Assembly: GCA_963741955.1 (NCBI GenBank)
Contig: CAVUKB010000004.1
Coordinates: 64,001-128,000, forward strand
Direction: 5' to 3'
From: an uncultured Acidobacteriota bacterium
Lineage (GTDB): Bacteria > Acidobacteriota > Thermoanaerobaculia > Gp7-AA8
DNA: 64,000 nucleotides
The position numbers and the translations under genes are program-made. The notes under the pieces are model-generated. The model saw nothing but the letters and a program-made list of their open reading frames with translations, was not told where the DNA came from and ran no database searches. Shown piece after piece: positions 48,843 through 64,000 of this stretch. Numbering within the stretch: the first letter of the stretch is position 1; each line of letters begins with the position of its first letter.

Positions 48843-49025
48843 CCGAGCCTCGAGCCCCGAGCCTCGAGTCCCGCATCCACTCTTCCGAGCCTCGAGCCCC
48901 GAGCCTCGAGCCCCGCGTCTCTCACCTCGAGCCTCGAGCCTCGAGTCTCGAGCTCCGCGTCTCTCACCCCGAGCCTCGCGTCCCGAGCCTCGAGTCCCGC
49001 GTCTCTCACCCCGAGCCTCGCGTCC
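48843..49025. repeat. (CGAGCCT)n heptamer array of junction cassette copy 2 (copy 1 at 45832-45892)
   Basis: Both copies are followed by CCTGGAGCAGCG-ATGA-C(C/T)TCACC(C/T)TCGCAGAAAG. Confidence 0.9.
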
Positions 49026-49048
49026 CGCACCTTCAGCCTGGAGCAGCG

Positions 49049-52000
49049 ATGACTTCACCTTCGCAGAAAGCCATGAAAATGACGCAATCTCGCCAGACGG
49101 AGTCGCCCATCGGCCTCGACACTCAGAGACAATCAGACTGTCCCTCTCGAACCGGTTTATTCCGGACTACGGAGCGGCAGCAAGCGCGCGCGAGCGCCGC
49201 GCTCGTCGACACTGATCAGACAACCTGCCTGGATCGCCTCGGCGTGACTCTCGACGAGAGCAAGGATCATCGCCACGAGTTCCTCGTTCAGCACGTCCAC
49301 CATGCGGATCTGAATGACAGTGGGAAGACGCTGGGAGCTCAGGGCGAGGAGGTCGCTGAAGTCGAGGTCCCGGGTGACGACGACCCAGCCTTGCCGTCGA
49401 GCTCTCTCCAGAATCTCGGAATCAGCTGCGGTCGGCTCGCCGATCGACATCCAGTGAACGCTCTCGATCCCTCTTGTCGACAGCTTTCGCGCGAGGGAAG
49501 GAGCGAGATTGAAGTCGATCAGCAGCTTCACTGCGGGTCCGCAGCCTTACCGATCTCGACCTCGGCCTCGGACGAACGCCACGCTCCGTACGCCAGTGCC
49601 TCGCGGATGTCCGCTTCCTCGAGGTACGGATACTCGGACAGAATCTCCTCGGCAGTTCGCCCGGACGCAAGGAGCCCGAGGATCGTTCCCACCGTCACCC
49701 GCATCCCGCGGATGCACGGCTTTCCGCCCATGACTGCCGGATCCCTGGTGATGCGTGTCAGCCGATGCATGTCAGCCCTCCAGCGGAAGATCGGCGGTGC
49801 GGCTGCCGATCGTGTCCATTCCATCTCCCGCAACGCCACGGCCCGAACCCGAAATCTCGACAGGCCGAGGCATACTTCGAGCAGCCGCAGGAGCTCGGCT
49901 CTGAGCGGCCTCTCCGCCGCGCTGCTTCTCTTCTTCGCGCTACTTCCCGCCCTCCCTCTTTTCGCCCAATCTCCGACCGAAGTCGTCGTTCAGGAAGACT
50001 TCCAGTCGTACCCGACCCAGGCCAACCCGCAAGGCTGGGTCGATACCTCCGTCGGCAACCCGCACCCCCAGGCCGAGGGGCTGTACAAGACGTGGCCGGA
50101 TCCGACGCAGGGGAACAAGGGAGCGAATGTCGTCTACGGGACGAAACAATCCTCCGGCAAACCGGAAGGGCGCAACCCGCGCATCGGGACATTCTCCACA
50201 CTCGTCGATCACACATTCGGCACAAAGGGACGTTTCGAATACCGCGGGCGTTTCATCCGCACGCGCTCCGACGCGCGCATCGGCCTCACGTTCCTCTCCT
50301 CCTATCCCGACTCCGACCACTATTACCTTCTCGGCCTCTGGTCCCAGGCGACGTCGAGCAAGCTCACCATGCAGCTCTTCTCGTTCGGCGCGGGGACGCT
50401 GACCGGCACCATCGACAGCAACTTCACTCCCGAGCCCGGCAAGTGGATCCGCTTCCTCATTCAGGTCGACGGATCGGACGCTGGCAACAAAATCCGCGCG
50501 CGCTTCTGGATCGACGGCACCGACGAGCCGTCCGGATTCACGATCGAGGCGGAAGACTCCGCCGCGGGACATCTCGCGTCGGGCCGCATCGGTATCTGGG
50601 CCGCAGTCAAGGGCGACGCATACTTCGACGAGCTCTTCGCGAAGTACCCGGTCGACATCACCGCGCCCGCAATCTCCTTCCTCGAGTCGGGAACTACGCT
50701 CAACGACGGCGCGAAGTTCAACCGCGACGTCGCCCCCGCGATTCAGGTCGTCGACGACACCGACCCGAGCCCCTCCTGGTCCGCAACGCTCGACGGACAG
50801 CCGTTCACGTCCGGAACGACGGTCGCCGCCGAGGGAACGCATCTCCTTGCAGTCGACGCGGCCGACTCAGCCGGGAACGCGTCGCACGCCCAGCTCTCCT
50901 TCTTCATCGACAAGACTGCGCCGCTCCTCGCGGTTACCGAATCGGGCGCGCCACTCGCCGACGGCGCGATCTTCGATCACGATGCTGTCGTCTCGATTGT
51001 CGTGACCGACATCAGCGCGACCACCGACGCGATCCTCCTCGATGGCCAGCCTTACACATCGCTCACCCCGATCACCACGGAAGCGCAGCACGAGCTTTCC
51101 GTCTCTTCGATCGACGAGCTCGGAAACGGCCCCACGACGTTCGGTCCGGTTCATTTCTTCGTCGACGAGACCGCGCCGGTCGTGACCATTCTCCAGAACG
51201 GAGCGACGCTCCAGGAAGGCTCGGCGTTCAACCACGACGTCACCGGCTCACTCGCTATCGAAGACCTGACCCCGACCACGAGCTCCATGGCCCTCGACGG
51301 GCAGCCCTATGCGTCCGGAACGCCGATCAGCACCGACGGCTCTCACACCCTCGCCGCGACGGTCACGGACTCCGCTGGTCACACCACCACCGCCGGCCCG
51401 CTCCATTTCATCCTCGACGAGGCAGGGCCCACGGTCACCATCCTCGAGAGCGGCCAGCCGTTCCCGGCGGCCTATTTCTTCAACCGGGATGTCGTCGCGT
51501 CGGTCTCAGTCGACGACATCGCGCCGCACACCGCGACGATGTCTCTCGATGGTCAGCCGTACACGGAAGGGACGCCGATCACCGCCGAAGGTCCGCATGA
51601 GATCTCGGCGCACGTGACGGACACCGCAGGAAACGACGTGACCGTCGGTCCGATCGCGCTCACCATCGACAAGACTCCGCCCGTCGTGACGCTCCTCGAG
51701 AGCGGCCAGCCGTTCGCGGCGGGCCAGACGTTCCCACGCGACGTGGTCGCGGATGCCACTGCCACCGACACGATCTCGAAGGCCACGCTCACTTTGACCC
51801 TCGATGGGCAGACGTACGTCGCCTCCACTCCCGTCACCGCCGAAGGAGAGCACACCTTCGCCGCGACCGCCGTCGACCAGGGGGGGAACACGGCGTCCGC
51901 CTCCGTCTCCTTCGTCATCGACGAGACTCCCCCCGAGTTGTCGTTGCTCCTCGGCGGGCAACCGTTCCCGGCCGACCTCTGGACGAATCAGGATGTCACT

Positions 52001-55000
52001 CCCGAGCTCGACATCGTCGACATCTCCACCACCACGACCGACGCGACGCTCGACGGAGCACCGTACGCGATCGGCGCGCCCGTCTCTCTGGAAGGGGAGC
52101 ACGTTCTCGACGTCGCCGTGACCGATGCCGCGGGGTGGACCACGACGCTCGACGCGGTGACGTTCCACATCGACCGCGTACCTCCGGCACTCACTGTCAC
52201 TTCGCATCAGCAGGGTCAGGTCTTGCCGGAGCCGCGCGTCGTCCTCGCCGGCGGTGCGGATGACGCCGTGAGCGTCACGGTGAACGGCCAGACGGCGACG
52301 GTCGACGCGACGGCGAGAACGTGGACTGCGCCCGAGCTTCCACTGCTCGAAGGAAGCAACGCGTTCACGATCCGCGGGACGGACCGCGCCGGGAACAGCG
52401 GGGAGATCACGCTGAATCTAGTTGCCGACACCCGCGCGCCGGAGCTCGCGATCGTGGCGCCCGTTGCCGGAAGCTGCGTCGCCGGCTCGCCGCTCGAGAT
52501 CCGCGGTTCAGCCAGCGATCCCGAGATCGGCGACGTCGTGGTCTCCGTCGATGGAACGTCGGTTCCCGCCTCGCTCGACGCGTCCGGCAACTTCGTCGTC
52601 ACGTTCGCCAACCTCTCCGAAGGAGAGAAGAACGTCACCGTCACGGCGACGGATACGATCGGACATGCGACCTCGCTCGTCCTCCCGCTCAGCATCGACC
52701 GCACGCCGCCGGTCATCGCCGTCACCGAGGGCGGCAAGCCATTCACCGCGACGCTCGTGAACCGCCCGATTGCACTCTTCATCAGCACCAGCGACGCCGA
52801 CCCGAACGCGAAGCCGGTGGCAACGCTCGACGGCGCGGCGTACTCCTCCGGCTCCACGATTGCGAATGAAGGTGCCCACGCGCTTCAGATCACCGCGACC
52901 GACTGTGCCGGTCTCACCGCGACGAGCTCCCTTACCTTCACCATCGACACGACCGCACCGACCATCACGAACCTCCTCCCCGCCAACGGTGCCACGGTAG
53001 GGGAGATGCCGACGACGGTCACCGGCAAGACCGATCCTGACGTCCACGACCTCGTCGTTCGAGCCTCGAGCCTCGAGTCCCGAGCCTCGTCTTTCGCCCC
53101 CGACGGCACCTTCACCATCCCCAGCGTCCCCTTCGCCGAAGGGGAGAACCGCTTCACGATTCACGCGACCGATGACGCCGGAAACTCCAGCGACACGCCG
53201 TACGTCGTCACCGTCCGCACGACGACTCCTTCTCTCGAGATCCTCGACAGCGGCTCGCCGATCCCGCCCGGCGCGCTCTACAACCGCACCGTCACGCCGG
53301 TGATCCGCAGCGGAGCCTCCGACGCGACGATCTCCGCGACCCTCAACGGCGATCCCTTCACCTCGGGGACGGAGATCACCGCGGACGGCGCGTACACTGT
53401 CGACGCCACCGCCACCGACTCGCTCGGCCACAGCGGGAACGCAACCGCGACGTTCTCGATCGACCGCACGCCTCCCGCTGTCGCGATCGCCTCGCCCGCC
53501 GACGGCGCGGCGATCGACGCCGATCAGGTCGTGGTGACCGGCACGTCCGGGGATGCGACATCCGTCAATGTCGACGGCGCGCCCGCCGCACTCGACGGCA
53601 GCGGCCACTTCACCGCGACGCTTCCGCTCGAACCGGGCGAAACGGCGATTATTGCGACCGGCCGTGACGCCGCCGGCAACTCCGGCACCGCTCAGATCAC
53701 CGTCACCCGCGCCGCTGCTGCGACCGGCATCATCCTCACGTCACCCACCGACCACTCCCTGACCAACCGCCCGACCACAGTCGTCACTGGCCGCATCCTC
53801 ACTCCCGCAAATGCCGTGTCGCTCGTCATCGACGGCACCGCGCTCGGAGCGCAGGCTACCGGCCGGCGCTCTCCTTCAAATGCACCCGGATCCACGCCGC
53901 TCGCGACGGCCCATTCCCCTCTCCCCGTCCGGACCTTTGCCTCGGGCGTAAATCGAACTCCGGGGAGAGGGGTCAGGGGTGAGGGGCAACTACGCGCGCA
54001 AACCGAAGTTGTGAGCACGAGTCCCGAGTCCCGAGCCTCGAGCCTCGCAACTCCCTTCGACCCCACCGGCGCATTTCGCGTCACCGCGTTCCCTCTGGTC
54101 GAAGGCGAGAACACCATCACCGCGACCGTCACCGACAAGTCCGGCAAGACCAGCACCGCGAGCGTCCGGATCACAGCAGACCTGACCCCACCCGCTGTGT
54201 CGCTGCTCGAATCAGGCCAGCCTCTGGAGGACCAGGCCCGTTTCGCGACGCAAGCCCTCCTCTCCGCGACGGCGACCGACTCCGGTGCCGCCATCGACGC
54301 GACCCTCACCATCGACGGCGCGTCTGCCACGTCGCCCGGCACGATCACGGCTGCCGGCCCGCACATCGCAATCGCCTCGGCACGCGACACGGCCGGCAAC
54401 GTGACCCGCGTCCAGCGCACGTTCTTCATCGGTACGGAGCAGGGGAGTGGGTGCGGTCTCTCCGCATTCGATCCTGCCGATGGCTCCGTCGTCACCGCGA
54501 GCTCCGTCACGCTCGTCGGCCGCAGCGGCGGCGCAGCCGGCGTCACGGTCAACGGTGTCCCCGCAGTGGTCGCGAACGGCTCGTTCTCCGGCACCGCGGA
54601 GCTCCCGCAGGAAGGGCCGAACCTCGTCACCATCCGCTGCACCGACGCCTCCGGCAACCCCACCGGCGGCCCGGTCACCCTCACTCTCAACCGCGTCACC
54701 GGCAATCCATCCGTTTCCATCACCACTCCCGCCGAGATGGCGACGTTCGCCGCCGGAACCGTCGATGTCACCGGCACGTACGCCGATGCCTCCCGCGTCG
54801 ACGTCAACGGAGTCGCCGCGACGCTCGCGAACGGAACCTTCAGCGTCGCCGCGCTCCGTCTCTCTCCTGGTCTGAACATCCTGGTCGCCCGTGCCACCAA
54901 CGAAGCCGGCCGCAGCTCCATCGCTTCGCGCCGCGTCCTCTATCTCGACAAGTCGTCCGTGATCTCCATCGACTGGCCGAACGACGGCTTCACCACCGGC

Positions 55001-58000
55001 GCCGCCTCTCTGGACGTCAGCGGCACGTGGAGCAATCTCGTTCCGTCGACCATCACAGTCAGTGTGAGCGGCGTGCAAGAGGCGAGAGACGAGAGGCGAG
55101 GGGCGAGAAGGAACACAACAGGTCGGCTGCGGTCGGCGGAGCCACGATCGAAGAACGATGTCGCGAGCGACGACGGTACGGTTTCTTCACGCACCGCCCG
55201 CCACTCGACACACGCCTCCGATCGCATCGCAGCGCAGGGAGAGAAGAATGAGCTTCGACTATCGCGATCTGAAAGCGTGGCAGCTCGGAATGCAGATGGC
55301 TCGTCGGGTCTACGAGATCACGCGAGATTTTCCGAAGCGAGAACAGTACGGCCTGACGCAACAGATCCAGAAGGCAGCCGTTTCGGTTCCGTCGAACATT
55401 GCGGAAGGTCATGCGAGGGATTCGACGGCGGACTTCCTCCGCCATCTGTCGATCAGTCGCGGTTCGCTCGCGGAATTGGAAACGCAGCTGATCTTGGCGA
55501 AAGCTTTTGGATATCTCCCTCTGCAGAGCCTGGAGGAGTTGATGAAAGTATCGGACGAGCTGAGCCGAACTCTGAGGGGACTTCAAAAATCGTTGAGGCG
55601 TCGACTGGAGAAGAAACCATAGCGGAAGTGTCGATCGATGCGATTGCGTGGTCCGACACGACTGGAAACTTCATCGCTCACGCGGTGCCCTTGCTTCCCG
55701 GTACTCAGACCATCACCGTGACGGGTTCGACCATGGATGGTCGCATCGCCACCACGAGTATTCGGGTGACCAGAATCGATGGCGAATCAGACATTACGAT
55801 CGATTCGCCTCTCGCCGAATCCTGGTTCAGCGCGAACGCGGGAGATCCGATCTCCGTCGCCGGCACCTTCACTGCAGCTCCCGGTTCCAATGTCGAGGTG
55901 AATGGTTCGACGGCGACCCTCGGCGTCGCCTCTTCTTCGACCAGAACAGTCACCCTCGCCGCGTCCTCAACGAGCGCTGTCTCTGCGCACCCCGTTTCTT
56001 CGCTCGCCTCTCGCCTCTCGCCTCTCGCCTCTTCTTCGACCAGAACAGTCACCCTCGCCGCGTCCTCAACGAGCGCTGTCTCTGCGCACCCCGTTTCTTC
56101 GCTCGCCTCTCGCCTCTCGCCTCTCGCCTCTTCTCCTTACTCTGCAACCGCCGCGTTCTCCTCCTCCGACCCCACTCCCATCATCGCCCGCGTCACCCAG
56201 CCCGACGGCCTCTCCGCGATCACGACCATCTTCGTCCATCACCTCTCGGGCGCTCCTGCAGTGAAGGACGTCTTCCCCGCGGACGGCGCCACTTCCGTCG
56301 ATCCCGCAGCGCTGATCCTCGTCTCCTTCTCCGCGCCGATGGACCGCGCGTCGCTCTCGGCCGCATTCACGCTCGAGAACATGAGCGGCATGCCCGTCGC
56401 CGGACAGATGCGTCTCGATCGCGATGTCCTCAGCTTCGCCCCCGCGACGACTCTCAATCCCGGCGAGCGCTATACCGTCCGTCTCTCGACCGCCGCGAAG
56501 GACCTCGCCGGGAATGCGCTCGCCTCCGAGTTCACCAGCAGCTTCACGATCTCCACCACGGCGCCATCCACCGCGCCGGTGGTGAACCCGGTCGCCTCGC
56601 CCCTCTGCTCGGATCGGGTCGCCCTCAGCGGCACGGCACTTGCGGGGTCACGTCTGCGGATCGATTTCAAGGGCGTTCCGCAGTTCACGGCCGCGGCTCC
56701 GACGGAACGTGGCATTTCGATCTCGCCATCCCCGCCGAATCGGGATTCGACGTGGTCCGCGTCCGCATCGTCGGCGGCGACGGCACGCTCTCGCCTGCGG
56801 CCGAAGTGAAGTTCCAGGTCGACTGCGCCGGTCCGCAGCTTCTCGGCGCGTCCTACGACCGCACCACGAACATCGTCACCATCGACGTTCTCGAAGCCGA
56901 TGGATCTCGCATCAGCGTCCACCGGCCGAACTCCGCTCTCTCTCTCCAGATCGCCGACGGCACGATCCTCGGCGGCACCGTCGCGCAGGGCGACGAGCTC
57001 CTCTTCGCTCACCCTTACGCCAGCATCCGATCTGACGCAGCAGACGTTCACGCTCAACGTCACGACCGCGATCAAAGACACTACCGGCCGCAACCTCGTC
57101 TCCGGCTATACGCAGACCTTCGCCACCGGCTCCGGATCCGAACCTCCTCCCACCGACGGCACCGGCTACATCTCCGGCAAGATCCTCGACGCCGCCACCG
57201 GTCGCCCCCTCGCGGGCGCGGACATCACCATTGACGTCCCCGTGAACGCCTTTGCCCGAGGGGAGCAAGCTCATAGCTTGCTCTCTCGTTCCACTGGATC
57301 CGCACCCATGCCTCTCGGGACCTCCGGTTCCCCTCTCCCCGTCCACACCCAGGCCTCGGGCGCAATTCGCACTTCGGGGAGAGGGGTCAGGGGTGAGGGG
57401 CAGCTACGCGCGCTGAGCGAAATCGTAAGCGCCGCTTCGTCCACCCTCTCCTCCGACGCCACCGGCACCTATACCACCCGCCTTCCCGAAGGCGCCTACA
57501 CCATCCACGCATCCGCTCCCGGCTACACCGAGGTCTGGCGCCAGATCGTCGTCCCGGCCGGCCAGGGCGTCCTCCCGATCGACATCCGTCTCACACCCCT
57601 CGGCGCCACCGGCACCGTCGGAGCGGCCTCCATCGAGCCCCGAGCCTCGAGCCTCGAGCCTCGGTTCCGTCGGCTCTCCCACGAGCCCCGAGCCTCGAGC
57701 CTCGAGCCTCGGCTCTGTCGGTTCTCCCACGAGCCCCGAGCCTCGAGCCTCGAGCCTCGGCATCCTCTTCAGACCTGACCCTCTCCCACGGCGGCGAGAC
57801 ATCCGTCACCCGCCCCGCGACGCTGACCGTCCCCTCCGGCGCCGATCACCTCCGGCACGACACTGACACTCACCTCCGTCGGCGGCCAGTCCCTCGCCGG
57901 CCTCCTCCCTCTCGGCTGGTCCCCGCTGGCGTCCACAGAGATCTCCTCCGTCGCCACGTCCGCGAACGCAGCCCGAGGGGAGCGAGCTTATAGCTTGCTC

Positions 58001-61000
58001 TCTCCGAAGACATCCGCAGAAATCGGACCTGCCAGCGCGAATCGCCCAGCGTCCTCCCTCGCCGCTCCGGTTTCGTCCTCACTCGTCTCTCGCCTCTCGT
58101 CTCTCGCCTCTCTCCCCAACTCCACTCTCACGTTCACCGTCCCTTACACCGATATCACCAGCGCGGCTCAGACCCTCACCGCCGTCCGCTACGACAGCGA
58201 TCGCGACGAATGGATCGTCCTCGAGCCCGTCGTCAGCATCACCTCCGACGGCCCCGCCTCGATCACCGTCGACTCCACCGGCGCGTACGCTCTCGTCTAC
58301 CCGGATAAGGACTCGGGGAGTACTCTGCAGACTCCACCGCTCCCCATTCCAGGCTCGGCGCTCGCCGGCGTCACTCCCGTCGACCTCGATCCGACGACCA
58401 TCACCGCATCTCTCACCCTCGATCCTTCGATCGTTCTCCCCAGCGGCCGAACCGTCGGCACCCTCACGGTCTCTCCGAGCCTCGAGCCTCCAGCCTCGAG
58501 CCTCGCGTTCCCCTCGGGCACCGCAGTCCAGGCGTTCGTCCACGAAGAGCTGCGTCTCGTCGACGGAACCGTCGTCGCGGACCAGCCGTTCTCCGCGGAC
58601 CTCGTCCTCTACCGCACGCTCTCCGGCGCTCCGGCGACCGCGGCGTTCCACCTCCAGCCGAGCGCGAAGGCCGCGACGGTTCCGCTGCAGATCGGCTACG
58701 ACCACATCCGCGTCTTTCCGTATCCCGGACGCCTCGACCGCGGCACACTCATCGGCCCCGAGGGTGGACGCGTTCCCTCGGATGGGGGAGTGGAGCTCGA
58801 GATCCCGCCCGGCGCAGCCACCGAGCCGCTCCACGCCAGCGCGACGTCGCTCGACGCCACTGCGCTCGCTTCCTACGGCACCATCGACGGCTTCACCCTC
58901 GTCGGCGGCTTCACGTTCTCGCTCGACCGCGCAGTCGGGGGAGAAGAGGCGAGAGACGAGAGGCGAGAGGCGAGTGGATCTGACGCCCGAGGCTCTCGTG
59001 GCTCGGGCTCTTCGTCACGCGCATCGGAGATTGGAGCTGGCAACGGTGATCGTGAAGCGTTCTCTCTCGCCTCTCGTCTCTCGCCTCTCGCCTCTGACGT
59101 CGCGTCCCCCACGCTTCTCGCCTCCGCCCGCGCGACCTTCTCCGTCGACACGACCAATCTCACCGCGCCCCAGTTCATCCTCGCCGAGGTCCTCGGCGAC
59201 ACGCCGTACGGCCGTGTGATCCGTCTTGCGAACGTGATGGAACCACTTGTTGGAGGAGCCGAGGCTCGAGACTCGAGGCTCGAGGCTCGCAGCGGCATCG
59301 CCCGTGGAGAGCAGGCTTATAGCCTGCTCCCTCCGGTACCATCTTCAGACACGGGTGTCGCGAACGATCATCGTCAGGCGTCCTCTCTCGCCTCTCGCCT
59401 CTCGTCTCTCGCCTCTGATTCCACGCGCATCACCACATCCAGGATCGATCCCTCGAACCTCCCTCTCGACGGCATCTCCCACTCCGGGATCTACCTCCTC
59501 CTCCGCGCGAACCAGCCCATCGCCTACGCGACGGGTCTCGTCCGCTTCGGCATCTCCGGCCTCTACGCCTCCGACGCCAGCGTCCTCTCACTCACGTCGA
59601 CGCCACTCGGGACGGCGTCGGTCAAGGAGGCGAGAGGCGAGAGGCGAGAGGCGAGGGGAGGAACGAATTCCGGACTTCTGTCATCGTCACCCGCTGATGC
59701 GCAGGCTCATAGCCTCCGCTCTGGTTCCGGCAAATCCGTACCCGCGACTCTCGCGACGCCCGCTTCCCCTCTCCCCGTCCGCACTCTCGCCTCGGGCGCA
59801 AATCCCAATTCGGGGAGAGGGGTCAGGGGTGAGGGGCAACTACGCGCGCAGAACGAGGTCGCTCGCAGGGCCTCCTCCCTCGCCTCTCGTCTCTCGTCTC
59901 TCGCCTCTTCTCCCGCGTCGCTCGCCGCTTCGTCCCCCCTCGGCACCACCGACCTTACCCGCCCCACCGGCCTCTTCTCCATCCCCGTCGTCGCCACTCC
60001 CGCGGATCCCTTTGCGCTCCAGCCCTCGCACCCATCCACCGGCGCCGGCACCCCCTGGACCGCAAACTCCAGCCCTGACCCCGGCATCGTCATTCACGTT
60101 GGCGATCTTGTTCTCACATCGCAGCCGCCGCAGCTCCAGCACGTCAACGTCATTGGCGGCGACCCCTCCGGCACGATCGACCTCGTCGCCGTGAACGGGG
60201 CAGGCGAGATCTCCCTAGGCACGAGTGTTCAGGCCCTCTTCGACGTGAACCTCGATCCGGCATCCGCCGGCGCGACCTCGCTCGTCGTCACCGACGCGTC
60301 CACGCAGACCGTCGTCGCGGGCACCGCGATGCTCGCCGGCTCGACCCTCACCTGGACCGCATCCACTCCGAACGCGCTTGCGCCGTCGAGGCAATACAGG
60401 GTGACCCTCTCAGCCACGCTCCGCGGCGCGAACGGCGCCCCGCTTGGGACGACCCGCACGTTCGCCTTCACCACCGTTTCGCAGATCACCAGCACCGAGA
60501 TCGATCCTTCCAAGATCCACATCACCATCCCCGACGCGAACGGCGTATCCACAATTTACGGCCTCCCCGGCGCGCTCCCCTCCGGCTGGCGCGCCGTCGC
60601 CCTCCGCCGCGGCACCGCCTTCGTCACGCAATACCAGACCACCGCCGCAGGGGATGGAAGTTTCTCGTTCGCGATCGGCGGGTGCGGGGGAGGGACGGGG
60701 GTCGGGGGTCAGGGGTCAGGGGTCAGGGAGCTGAGTCGATCTGATCGCCGGACCTCTGAGATTTCCCGCGACGAAGCCTTGTCCCTGTATTCGTCGACCC
60801 ACACGTCACCCCGACCCCTGACCCCCGACCCCGGACCCCTAAGCTCCGTCTCGCAACCACAATTACGAAAGGCCACTCATGAAGATACAAACCTATCGCG
60901 ATCTGGTCGTCTGGCAGGAATCGATGCAGCTCGCGAAACAGGTGGTCCTGATCGCGCGTCGGTTTCCTCGGGAGGAACTCTTCGGATTGTCGGCGCAGGT

Positions 61001-64000
61001 CAAGAGAGCAGCCGTATCGGTGCCGTCGAATATCGCGGAAGGGCACGCGCGGGATTCGACGAAGGAGTATCTCCATCATCTATCGATTGCTCACGGTTCT
61101 CTGGCCGAAGTGGAGACGCAGCTCCTGCTGGCGAAGGATCTTGGCTGGGGAGACTCGTCTTCGATCGAAGGAGCTCTCCAACAGAGCGATTCACTCGGCA
61201 GGAAGCTTCACGCATTACGCAGATCGCTTCGATCGCGCCGCTGACGGCGGCTCTCCCTGACCCCCGACCCCTAACCCCTGACCCCCACTCCCGTCAGGCG
61301 ACTACGACATGCACGGACCAGCTCTCCCTCACCGACCACATCTCCCTCGAGATCCTCAACACCGCCGACAACATCGCGGCGATCATCCCGCTCACGCCAT
61401 TCGTCACGGCGGACGGCCACGGCTTCGTCGCCCCGCCCGACCAGGACATCACGTTCATCATCTCGGACGAGATTACCGTCCACGTCCCCGCCGGCGCGTT
61501 CGACCAGCCAACGCTCGTCACCGCCACGCCGTCCACGAAGGACGCCTTCTCCGAAGTCCCGAACTTCGACACAGAGCTCGACTACAAAGCCTCGGTCAAC
61601 CTCTCCTTCGACTGCACAGTGGCTTCTTCGTCCTCCCCGAGCCTCGAGCCTCGAGCCTCTAGCCTCGGTTCCCCAAGTCTCGGTTCCCCAACGAGCCTCG
61701 AGCCCCGAGCCTCGAGCCTCGCGTTTCCCTGTCGCGCGAACAAGCCCCTCGACCTCTCCATCCCGGTTCCCGCAAACACCGACCCCACGAAGCAATACCT
61801 CCTCGGCTGGCTCGGCCAGTCCATCCGCGGCCCGCGGATCATGATCGTCGACACCCTCCGCATTGACGGCGACCACTTCACCACCACGCCCGCGCCGTCG
61901 ATCGGAACGACCAGTGCGCAAACCGTGCACGCATCGTCGACCTTTTCAAACTCGTCGCTCTACCAGGTTCGAGATCCCGGAACGTACGTCATCACCTCAC
62001 TGCTCAGTCCCTACGCCTGGGTGGATGTCGTCGTCAGATCGGCTGACCTCTACTGGTCGACGTCGTTCTCTCTCTTCGTCGCAGAACGCTACATCACGAT
62101 GGCGAAGGGTCACGTATACATCCCCGTGCTGACGGACACGCCCTTCCGCGTCTACGGCGTGGACGCGACCGGTTTCGAAACCTATTCGCGCGATTACGAC
62201 GGAATCGTTCCTGGAGATCCTGGAGTTTCGGTAGCACTCCCATCGGCATCTCCCGATAACAATGGACCTTATCCCGTGTGGGGCAGCCCTTATCGCGTCG
62301 ATTCCGTAATCCTTCGCGATGGAGACGTGATCGTTCCAAACATCAAGGTCAATCAGTCGGGAGGAGTTGCGACGGTCACGCAGAACTCTTCCTCCACCAC
62401 CGCGAGTGTTCTTTCGAAGGGAACGAAGGTTCAGGCATTCGACGTCGAAACCGGCGCGGTGAACAGCGCGACAGTCGGTGACGGCGGCAGTTTCTCGATG
62501 TCAGTTTCTCCGGTCCATTCCGGAGACCGTCTTCTTCTCTTCATCAGTGCCTCCGACGTCGATCCGTCGAGTCTCGTCACCGTGGTTTTCAACGAGCCGC
62601 TCCAGCTCGCGAACATTCCGGAAGGCATGAGCTCCGCGGATGCCGAGATCGCAAACGAGAAGTTCCTGCACGACCTCATCGGCCTCGAGCACTTCACTAG
62701 TACGGGATGGGTACCGATAACCGACCAGGTGCACTTCCGGCACGATTCGGGAGACCGCCGAATCGTCCTCGAGTTGCCGTCCTCGCTGGTTCGAGGCGAT
62801 CGGTATCGGGTTCACCTCAGCGAGGCAATCACCGACGCCGGGGACAACCACATCGGATCGGTTAAGGACTCCAGCGGGAAGGTCACCAACGGCGCTGGAC
62901 TCCCGTTGGATCTCGAATTCACGGTCCGCAGCCCACACGGCGCGATCTCCTCTTTCGACATCGATCCGAGCACGGCTCACCATGGAGGGCTCGTGCGTGA
63001 CATCGCACGCAACGACACCCTCGTCTTCGTCTCGGCTCTCGACGGCGGAATCCTCGCCTACGATACATACGATCCGGCTGCACTCGCAAAAGACGGAAGC
63101 ACTCCGGCGCCCCTTTCCTTCGTGCCGGCCGCATGGACCAACGATGCCGGACAGCAGGTGACCGGCGGGATGGACGAGCACTGGGCGCTTGCCGTCGATA
63201 AGCACGGGCGCGTCTTTTCGACCGGCTTCATGGCCTCGTTCTCGGTCCTTCGGACTTACCGCGTGGAAGATTTCTGGAAGGCCTCCACTCAGCCCATGTG
63301 TGCCGGATTCGATCAGGCGCCACCGCACGCCCTCTGTAGATACGAGGGCTCCTCAATCATCGCCTGGCGCCCCGGAGTGTCGCTCGGCATTCCCGGGATC
63401 GACGATTCCCTCTACGGACTGACGGAAGGCTATCCGCGAAAGATCCGAGTCATTGAGCAGGACGATGGAGGGGAAGCTCTAGATCGAGACAACTTTGCGT
63501 CGACCTACGGAGGCGCGATCCAGAAGACCTTCAGCAATGGGATTCAGAAACTCTCCGTCACCGTCGCATGGGATACCACGAATCCCTACCAGCTCCAGCG
63601 CATTACGGTGGAGAACCTGACTCAACAGCTTCACTGGTCTGCCGACGCGACCCCGACGTCTCCTGCCGTGATCTCGGAGATCCTCGCCAAACCGGACGAC
63701 AAGCTCCGAATTGTGAAGAACGAGCGCACGTGGGCCGTCGTATCTCTCTTCGGCTACGGGATCGCCACCTACGACGTGAACGCCATCGAATCCAATGATT
63801 CACCAGATAAGGCTGCGGGTTACACCAACGTACCCGAACAGCTGTTCCTCTCGTCCGCCAGCGTCGACGATGCGTGCGACGGCCGGACGTTCCCGACCGA
63901 GGCGATCCGGGATTTGGCCTTCAGTCCCGATTTCGTCGCGAAAGTGGAAGTCGACGCCACGACCAACACAGCGACCATTGGGATCGACGCTCTCGATGTC
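49049..64000 (+). CDS. Giant-2: secreted protein of at least about 4980 codons (lectin/ConA-like N-domain, many Ig-like repeats), 3' partial, with short indel clusters at 56690-57000 and 57630-57845
   Basis: GGAG RBS plus ATG MTSPSQK; hydrophobic signal LSAALLLFFALLPALPLFA|Q at about 49910-49967; D.T.P...LDGQPY.SGTPI..EG.H....TD.AGN repeats; frame 2 is open from 57827 to the window end (hand-translated to about 62450; no frame-2 stop appears in the ORF track). Confidence 0.85.
49157..49531 (-). CDS. DUF5615 PIN-like toxin, antisense within the 5' region of giant-2
   Basis: MKLLIDFNL...D.EIL..A.....VVVTRDLDF. Confidence 0.9.
   Translation of the reverse strand: MKLLIDFNLAPSLARKLSTRGIESVHWMSIGEPTAADSEILERARRQGWVVVTRDLDFSDLLALSSQRLPTVIQIRMVDVLNEELVAMILALVESHAEAIQAGCLISVDERGARARLLPLRSPE
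49528..49770 (-). CDS. DUF433 antitoxin
   Basis: RITRDPAVMGGKPCIRGMRVTV...EEILSEYPYL...DIREALAY. Confidence 0.93.
   Translation of the reverse strand: MHRLTRITRDPAVMGGKPCIRGMRVTVGTILGLLASGRTAEEILSEYPYLEEADIREALAYGAWRSSEAEVEIGKAADPQ
53916..53998. repeat. CCCCTCTCCCCG...CGGGGAGAGGGGTCAGGGGTGAGGGG hairpin element, in frame in giant-2 (further copies at about 57329-57412 and 59767-59850)
   Basis: All three copies translate SPLPV.T.ASG....(P/S)GRGVRGEGQLRA. Confidence 0.85.
55248..55622 (+). CDS. Four-helix-bundle protein (TIGR02436 / 23S rRNA IVP family), nested in the +1 frame of giant-2
   Basis: YRDLKAWQ, FPKREQYGLTQQIQKAAVSVPSNIAEG, SRGSLAELETQL; GGGAGAG RBS. Confidence 0.93.
   Translation: MSFDYRDLKAWQLGMQMARRVYEITRDFPKREQYGLTQQIQKAAVSVPSNIAEGHARDSTADFLRHLSISRGSLAELETQLILAKAFGYLPLQSLEELMKVSDELSRTLRGLQKSLRRRLEKKP
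55927..56133 (+). repeat. 99-bp tandem duplication ending in (TCGCCTC)n, in frame
   Basis: ASSSTRTVTLAASSTSAVSAHPVSSLASRLSPL occurs twice. Confidence 0.9.
58945..59095. repeat. Heptamer inverted-arm insert with a stem of about 30 bp, in frame in giant-2
   Basis: AGAGGCGAGAGACGAGAGGCGAGAGGCGAG (58945-58974) pairs with CTCGCCTCTCGTCTCTCGCCTCTCGCCTCT (59066-59095). Confidence 0.88.
60879..61244 (+). CDS. Second four-helix-bundle protein (TIGR02436 family), nested in the +1 frame of giant-2
   Basis: TYRDLVVWQ, FPREELFGLSAQVKRAAVSVPSNIAEG, AHGSLAEVETQL; flanked by (GGGGTCA)n at 60697-60727 and (TGACCCC)n at 60807-60840 and 61255-61288. Confidence 0.93.
   Translation: MKIQTYRDLVVWQESMQLAKQVVLIARRFPREELFGLSAQVKRAAVSVPSNIAEGHARDSTKEYLHHLSIAHGSLAEVETQLLLAKDLGWGDSSSIEGALQQSDSLGRKLHALRRSLRSRR

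Follow-up and report, generated by a model that had tools for sequence, protein, structure and literature searches.

A heptamer-armed PF05635 cassette nested in the stop-free frame of a giant surface-protein gene in an uncultured Acidobacteriota bacterium

Introduction

Intervening sequences (IVSs) that carry an open reading frame (ORF) have been described in the 23S rRNA genes of Coxiella burnetii and Leptospira. Their architecture, as set out in the sections of PMC4990558 drawn on here, combines a PF05635/S23p gene within an insert of ~0.4–0.6 kb, complementary ends that form a long stem, tandem heptamers beside the ORF (unit GACAGAT in Coxiella, variable in number) and a lineage-specific distribution with a selfish look; the same sections report that the Coxiella IVS is excised at the RNA level by RNase III, and cite a pentamer of a Xanthomonas PF05635 homologue. 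Rickettsia palindromic elements (RPEs) and intragenic miniature inverted-repeat transposable elements are, according to the relevant portions of PMC10969869, in-frame hairpin inserts in unrelated coding genes that are translated and occupy structurally tolerant sites. Here, we analyze a 64,000-nucleotide stretch of DNA (the window; C4:64001-128000, where C4 is contig CAVUKB010000004.1) from an uncultured Acidobacteriota bacterium with a 5.4 Mb genome (63% GC, 16 contigs, 99.1% complete). Within the window, a giant gene for a surface protein with immunoglobulin (Ig)-like domains contains a cassette that matches the rRNA elements in its PF05635 gene, its arms (34 nt, 91% complementary) built of tandem heptamers, and its lineage-specific occurrence, and matches the RPEs in lying in frame within coding sequence. 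We describe the cassette, ask whether the open host frame across it could be due to chance, and weigh the explanations for its persistence in a coding gene.

Results

The cassette and its parts are listed in Table 1, together with other features of the host gene. The host flanks adjoin each other in all seven related loci compared (7/7), the gap between them measuring 9 nt in locus L004 and ~118 nt in L002, which has a G-rich insert of its own there. Alignment A2 (seven rows, comprising this genome and six orthologues, with L002 excluded for a frame break at the site) gives the same picture: the six orthologues carry 0–14 residues where this genome has ~206, and the insert is missing from 6/6. 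The cassette boundaries are accurate to ~±3 codons, and at that accuracy inspection of the sequence and of A2 revealed no directly repeated host sequence at either junction. Over its 206 codons, the host frame (codon starts at 2 mod 3, hereafter frame 2) contains 0 stops, compared with 5 and 6 in the other two forward frames. The left arm is complementary both to the near right arm, R1 (90% over 30 nt), and to the far right arm, R2 (91% over 34 nt), and the sequence of the loop between the left arm and R1 is unique in the genome (blastn). An initial annotation had described 60686..61310 as a nested gene with heptamer arms inside a host frame free of stops. That description is borne out by the orthologue comparison, the Pfam match, the arms and the stop counts, and the host text quoted in it, GSFSFAIGGC ... 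DPRPLTPDPHSRQA-TTCTDQLSLTDHISLEILN, is present in the translation. The segment 60692–61309 is confirmed, at the level of its sequence, as a real, intact and doubly coding segment.

Scans of 60500–61500 for promoters and terminators returned 0 and 0, and a search of 54900–61500 against Rfam (E ≤ 1) returned seven sub-threshold matches to miRNA precursors, which are generic hairpins. An intein or a group I or group II intron was considered and rejected, as Pfam finds only Big_5 on the 2001-aa host translation and Rfam only the sub-threshold miRNA hairpins.

Table 1. Coordinates (in the window) of the nested cassette, its parts and other features of the host gene.
Feature	Coordinates	Strand	Basis
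Host, giant Ig-domain surface-protein gene, frame 2	49970..64000, onward past the window to ~66457	+	Pfam, tblastn, ORF end
Copy 1, second nested cassette in the same gene; AGAGGCG left arm 55077-55107; PF05635 gene 55248-55622, same register	55075..55650	+	Repeat and ORF analysis
Host segment matching orthologues in frame 1 only	56677..57021	+	blastp E 7e-15 to 4e-22; none in frames 2 or 0
Second frame-1-only host segment, directly 3' of heptamer array 57633-57761	57763..57852	+	blastp E 3e-9
Cassette (copy 2), 618 nt = 206 codons, lineage-specific, in frame, in Cys-bounded variable loop of host	60692..61309	+	Related loci, A2, stop counts
Left arm, GGGGTC(A/G) heptamers, GGGGTCA x4.4 at 60698-60728	60697..60730	+	Repeat and inverted-repeat analysis
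Upstream hairpin loop, 77 nt	60731..60807	+	Fold; blastn (heptamer part alone matches elsewhere in genome)
Near right arm R1, TGACCCC-type; in-host-frame units CGA, GGA, not TGA	60808..60840	+	Repeat analysis, frame count
GAAAGG, Shine-Dalgarno-like, 6 nt before ATG, unpaired in minimum-energy fold	60867..60872	+	Sequence, predicted structures
Nested PF05635 (23S_rRNA_IVP, Avd-like) gene, 121 aa, frame 0 = host +1	60879..61244	+	Pfam E 3.2e-35
Far right arm R2, TGACCCC-type array at 61255-61285; single in-host-frame unit CGA	61253..61286	+	Repeat analysis, frame count
Gene-less CGAGCCT heptamer insert, next Cys-bounded loop, in frame	61620..61735	+	Repeats; orthologues skip query residues ~105-137; A2

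The nested protein matches PF05635 ("23S rRNA IVS protein") with a score of 121 bits against a cut-off of 33.8, over model positions 1–105 of 106, and it keeps the P-x-N-I-A-E-G core motif of the family. Membership of this four-helix-bundle family, which the initial annotation had proposed, is predicted with confidence by the Pfam match (E 3.2e-35), and the divergence it noted from a second nested gene in the same host (copy 1) is also real: the two proteins are 56% identical and share the exact run AAVSVPSNIAEGHARDST. Twenty-nine columns, P48, N50, A52, E53 and G54 among them, are invariant across copy 2, copy 1 and four relatives.

The central question is whether a host frame open over 206 codons is to be expected by chance. 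The host register corresponds to codons that start at the third codon position of the nested gene, and stops in this register were counted in two samples of PF05635 genes: the 80 closest relatives in one-genome-per-species contigs from many phyla (sample A, in which row L042 was mis-parsed, with 12 codons) and 62 genes in 60 regions, drawn from relatives of the same class (sample B). The register is free of stops in 3/80 and 3/62, respectively. Three of these six open cases are nested genes in their own right: the long host ORF encodes an Eco57I/MmeI-type methyltransferase for L015 and L051 and a DnaE2-like polymerase for L101. A fourth, L031, from a Candidatus Acidiferrales metagenome-assembled genome (2398–3981), is a cassette between ftsW and murG with GGGGTCR arms like those of copy 2 and a host-register frame that extends without interruption from the stop codon of ftsW into murG. 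Once the nested genes are removed, the host register is open in 3/138 non-nested PF05635 genes. Within the present genome, each of the three high-scoring PF05635 genes lies inside a host ORF, on the same strand and offset by one base, and has no stop in the host register (0, 0 and 0), whereas four non-nested PF05635-like genes have 8, 3, 3 and 2 stops in the corresponding register.

Composition was controlled for at the positions that could create a stop. At-risk sites were defined as nested third codon positions that precede AA, AG or GA, and non-nested genes with a GC content at third codon positions (GC3) of at least 0.6 served as background. T occurs at 0.108 of at-risk sites in the background and at 0/31, 0/24 and 0/25 in the three nested copies of this genome (product P = 1e-4), the value for copy 2 being 0/24. 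Among the eight right-arm units of copy 2, four are of a stop type (TGA or TAA) and three fall in the host frame, where they read CGA, GGA and CGA (P = 5/70); the three out-of-frame units of R2 read TGA, TAA and TGA. The claim that the host reads across the insert without a stop was therefore upheld, and its openness is not a matter of chance (P ~1e-4 for the three copies). Because stop-free host registers are much more frequent in nested copies than expected by chance, with no T at any at-risk site of the three copies of this genome, we conclude that the host frame appears to be now or recently under selection to stay open, or else that only cassettes already open survive in genes; under either alternative, translation through the cassette would have mattered.

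The nested gene lies at host +1 in 6/6 nested cases (three here, together with L015, L051 and L101), so that the convergence on one register that had been proposed for the two copies extends beyond this gene. A host-frame stop in the +1 register requires a T at the nested third codon position, which a synonymous change can remove, and T is rare at third codon positions in GC3-rich genes. The other register is open in only 0/79 (sample A without L042) and 1/62 (sample B) cases, and on average contains more stops. Since the stops of the +1 register depend on a removable third-position T and the other register is richer in stops, the shared register is likely explained by this filter and need not come from the mechanism of insertion. 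Copies 1 and 2 are independent insertions, as also proposed initially, on the evidence of their 56% identity, their different arm units (AGAGGCG in copy 1, GGGGTCA in copy 2) and the empty sites in orthologues at both positions. The identity between them is no higher than that to cassettes of other phyla, and their leaders align only weakly (score 33).

Both copies are accompanied by further repeats. Host homology resumes at 55652, after copy 1. Copy 1 has only its left arm (AGAGGCG) beside the gene; the matching CTCGCCT arms lie ~900 nt downstream (56003–56033 and 56102–56132; region 55926–56134), past ~270 nt of genuine host coding sequence and inside a perfect 99-bp tandem duplication. In total, the giant gene contains roughly 12 inserts derived from repeats, namely AGAGGCG/CTCGCCT and CGAGCCT heptamer hairpins, three copies of a dispersed hairpin and the two gene-bearing cassettes; with a single exception, frame 2 is maintained on either side of each insert. 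A third nested copy, L153, lies outside the window at C4:5100–5700, in frame and with TAGGACT-like arms, within an uninterrupted 1350-codon SNF2/ResIII/NOV_C helicase ORF; as this ORF is intact, the phenomenon is independent of a dead host.

Heptamer repeats are also abundant in the rest of the genome, which holds 287 perfect arrays of at least three units. Two families outnumber all others, and their units are those found in the arms of resident PF05635 genes (AGGATCG-type, 92 arrays, gene at C6:534950; AGAGGCG, 32 arrays, copy 1). Of the commonest units, the majority are free of stop codons in all six frames. An open frame of ±300 nt spans 79/284 arrays compared with 1274/2000 random sites, a comparison that is confounded by stop-free arrays and high GC and was left unused; as a rough test, with that confounding by array composition and GC, it suggests that the arrays are mostly intergenic.

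Several further repeats were observed alongside these. The dispersed hairpin occurs in the giant gene at 53861–54010, 57265–57420 and 59690–59860, each time in frame (host translation ...SPLPVRT..ASG..GRGVRGEGQLRA...), and its family accounts for 87 blastn hits across the genome, many of them arranged in tandem on contig C5. Approximately 190 nt of CGAGCCT-type heptamers (48843–49039) lie directly 5' of the signal-peptide start, where a promoter or leader would be expected. On C5, the region 1107446–1107655 is associated with a 267-aa protein whose N-terminus weakly resembles PF05635 and whose C-terminal part is rich in Cys; inverted 9-mer arrays (GTCGGACCT-like) lie on either side of it, and its ORF continues into the downstream array with the tail ...SDRSDKSDKSDRSD....

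The loop that received copy 2 is bounded by Cys residues and varies in length among relatives. In L005 (genome G027) it holds a short CTCGCCT array, and the insert in L002 (genome G010) is a G-rich, frame-shifting sequence of ~100 nt. Judged from these related loci, the Cys-bounded loop is a recurrent, permissive insertion site. AlphaFold2 applied to A2 predicts the flanking beta-rich domains with a predicted local distance difference test score (pLDDT) of 80–94, and the insert (residues 164–369) with a pLDDT of 23–47 and without secondary structure; the model thus pictures the insert as a putative disordered loop between folded domains.

Arms of the same general kind accompany other members of the family. 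Period-7 arrays with a score of at least 10 occur upstream of 44/81 PF05635 genes and downstream of 30/81, compared with 9/427 control windows; under a stricter rule, heptamer arms are present at 39/78 loci, and most relatives have one arm on each side of the gene. Protein identity correlates with arm unit (Mantel r 0.28, reached by 0/2000 permutations), and the same unit (at least 6/7 bases) is shared by 10% of pairs at 40–50% identity and by 49% at 70% or more. The link between protein clade and arm type that had been anticipated is therefore present. Common descent of whole cassettes predicts and explains this correlation, which, taken alone, is no proof that the protein recognizes the arms.

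The Pfam matches of the giant gene include Big_5, Big_13, Glucodextran_B and others, many Ig-like domains are recognizable in the translation, and tblastn matches to four orthologues of 4000–4300 aa span 49970–63949, all in frame 2. Two segments depart from this pattern and match orthologues in frame 1 only (Table 1), as judged by blastp of the three frame translations, tblastn having forced them into frame 2. Frame 2 contains a stop at 56807 in the first segment and stops at 57776 and 57824 in the second; from 57827 it is open through the end of the window to window-equivalent 66457. Each shifted segment is bounded by a -1 and a +1 shift, after which the gene regains frame 2, and the heptamer array that precedes 57763 has ~18 units. 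A real pseudogene, a mixture of strains or a local assembly error could be the cause. The rpoC gene and two dnaE genes, examined as uninterrupted controls, have open frames of 1423, 1308 and 1156 codons, so the assembly is not generally frameshifted.

Together with the results described above, these data lead us to favor, as the likely explanation, a selfish cassette of the IVS design, armed with heptamers and carrying a PF05635 gene, that persists in coding DNA only where ribosomes read through it; the cassette is probably mobile. It would have landed in a permissive surface loop of the giant Ig-domain protein gene, where host ribosomes would read straight through and add ~206 disordered residues between folded domains, and the nested gene would have a translation of its own, initiated at its GAAAGG–ATG start and offset by one base. 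Host-frame stops would either have been purged, by loss of third-position T and by change of in-frame arm TGA to CGA or GGA, or only stop-free insertions would have survived, and the common +1 register of the nested copies would follow from this open-frame constraint.

Several observations weigh against this explanation. No target-site duplication was seen and no empty/filled pair was found within one species, so that mobility is inferred. The low pLDDT of the insert is partly expected, as the seven-row alignment contains no homologues of it. The test of stops in the arm units is weak by itself (P = 0.07), and purging of stops after insertion is not distinguishable here from survival of insertions that were already open. 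The host gene as assembled is broken upstream of copy 2, and the part that bears copy 2 is without an upstream start of its own; the part with copy 1 is still joined to the signal peptide. Given two shifted segments upstream in a genome that is otherwise not error-ridden, copy 2 may sit in a recently dead gene, in which case its open frame would reflect past rather than present selection.

The foremost alternative, though we consider it improbable, is that the cassette acts as an IVS at the RNA level, RNase III cutting the heptamer stem so that the cassette leaves the transcript and the host never translates it. The design matches that of Coxiella and Leptospira in its complementary ends, S23p-family ORF and heptamers, with RNase III cuts placed mid-stem in the relevant sections of PMC4990558, and an RNase III gene is present in the genome. 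RNA folding, put forward as a check in the initial annotation, also predicts strong structure at the arms: the upstream hairpin has a free energy of -106.3 kcal/mol (z -4.37), reached by 0/200 shuffles. In the favored fold, however, the stem encloses only the 77-nt loop and not the gene. Excision would also make the frame and the stop content of the cassette irrelevant, yet both are conserved, and cutting without rejoining would sever the mRNA, and no gene for the ligase RtcB was detected in the genome, which is 99.1% complete. Cleavage could still be partial, reducing host expression or releasing a monocistronic message.

Chance in a decaying pseudogene, by which a dead giant gene gathers mobile repeats and the open frame is merely a spurious ORF of 63% GC DNA, has little prospect of being correct. 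The two frame-shifted segments and three in-frame stops upstream, the many long alternative-frame ORFs in the region and the accumulation of roughly a dozen repeat inserts in one gene speak in its favor. It is contradicted by the contrast between 3/138 open non-nested genes and 3/3 nested ones here with three more nested elsewhere, by the GC3-matched test (P = 1e-4) and the 2–8 stops of the within-genome controls, by the nested copy in the uninterrupted helicase ORF, and by the retention of frame 2 on both sides of all but one of the ~12 inserts.

The initial annotation also proposed a switch, in which the left arm alternates between the near and far right arms and thereby controls translation or processing of the nested gene. 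The part of this claim that stands is that both pairings are possible: the duplex energies are similar (-85.5 and -91.1 kcal/mol), and when R1 is blocked the left arm takes R2 over 31 positions. Regulation of expression or processing is unsupported, as the local hairpin dominates. The whole cassette folds to -288.1 kcal/mol when left free, with the left arm paired to R1, compared with -266.0 kcal/mol when R1 is blocked, a cost of 22 kcal/mol; the near hairpin would, moreover, be transcribed first. The ribosome-binding site and start codon are unpaired and outside both stems in either predicted state. Copy 1 lacks a matching architecture, its upstream hairpin not being significant (z -1.65; 12/200 shuffles fold as well), a single arm per side is the usual arrangement among relatives, and arms built of repeats yield no covariation signal. 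A switch is thus very unlikely, and the predicted layout is best read as a complete gene-less hairpin (left arm, loop, R1) followed by the gene and then by a further arm, R2.

Diversity-generating retroelements (DGRs) often target surface proteins. A role for the nested protein as the Avd accessory protein of a DGR that targets the giant Ig-domain protein, suggested by the homology of PF05635 to Avd (in the sections of PMC10053308 consulted) and by a weak bAvd Pfam match (E 3e-4, below the cut-off), has almost no chance of being right and was ruled out, as no reverse transcriptase lies near the cassette (the genome has a single RVT_1 match, located on a different contig, C11), no template/variable repeat pair was seen and the gene sits inside its would-be target.

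Discussion

Long same-strand overlaps with constraint on both frames are rare in bacteria, and here a conserved 121-codon gene lies wholly within the frame of another gene, an arrangement that recurs independently three times in one genome and again in other phyla. The comparison ties together three loose ends, namely the ORF-bearing IVSs of rRNA, the PF05635 family of unknown function and dispersed heptamer repeats, and it points to a simple principle by which an element with a gene of its own can reside in coding DNA while the host gene survives. There are practical consequences for annotation, as such genes are liable to be miscalled as split, fused or hypothetical, and the host-frame translation of a cassette appears as a spurious low-complexity protein.

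A broader hypothesis, which we put forward tentatively and with low confidence, is that PF05635 cassettes form a widespread, undescribed class of frame-neutral mobile elements, with codon usage tuned to leave an overlapping frame open, and that the four-helix-bundle protein has, as its targets in trans, the heptamer arrays that match its own arm type, as RAYT transposases have REPINs. If the first part were true, the class would colonize genes for surface proteins, helicases, restriction-modification methyltransferases and DnaE2, as well as rRNA and operon junctions. If the second were true, it would explain why the commonest heptamer families are the arm units of two resident PF05635 genes and why gene-less AGAGGCG/CTCGCCT hairpins, of the unit of copy 1, occur in the same host gene; it would also provide a function for the very large PF05635 family and an origin for bacterial heptamer repeats.

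Among described systems, the ORF-bearing IVSs of 23S rRNA and the RPEs are the nearest. The IVSs occupy helix 25 or helix 45, whereas the cassette lies in a protein-coding gene, at a position where the orthologues are uninterrupted. The cassette comprises whole codons and leaves the host frame free of stops, features that have no counterpart in rRNA, and its excision by RNase III would be harmful without rejoining. Its ORF is intact with a plausible ribosome-binding site, in contrast to the Coxiella ORF, reported in the consulted sections of PMC4990558 as decaying and probably untranslated.

The RPEs are paralleled most directly by the gene-less heptamer hairpins of the same giant gene, such as 58945–59095 and 61620–61735. 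RPEs, reportedly described by Ogata et al. (2000), are ~150 bp long and have no gene of their own, unlike the cassette, which carries a 121-codon gene in a second frame so that its DNA is constrained twice; the cassette arms also differ in being tandem heptamers of variable sequence and not a conserved family consensus. Other dispersed heptamer repeats are represented by the STRR and SDR elements of cyanobacteria. The TAACTGA repeats of the Beggiatoaceae are likewise arrays of a 7-nt unit scattered through the genome, mostly between genes, as described in the searched passages of PMC4679880, which contain 0 mentions of PF05635, S23 or intervening-sequence genes. The arrays described here differ in forming inverted pairs around PF05635 genes and in occurring inside coding sequence. 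The Avd proteins of DGRs belong to a homologous four-helix-bundle family, on the evidence of the part of PMC10053308 cited above, and differ in context, as no reverse transcriptase or template repeat is found near the cassette.

In our searches of the literature, which lay outside subscription journals and supplements, PF05635 cassettes with heptamer arms were nowhere described, either as a class or as elements nested within coding genes. Set beside these systems, an IVS-type cassette that resides in a protein-coding gene by virtue of read-through would represent a new form of a known cassette design.

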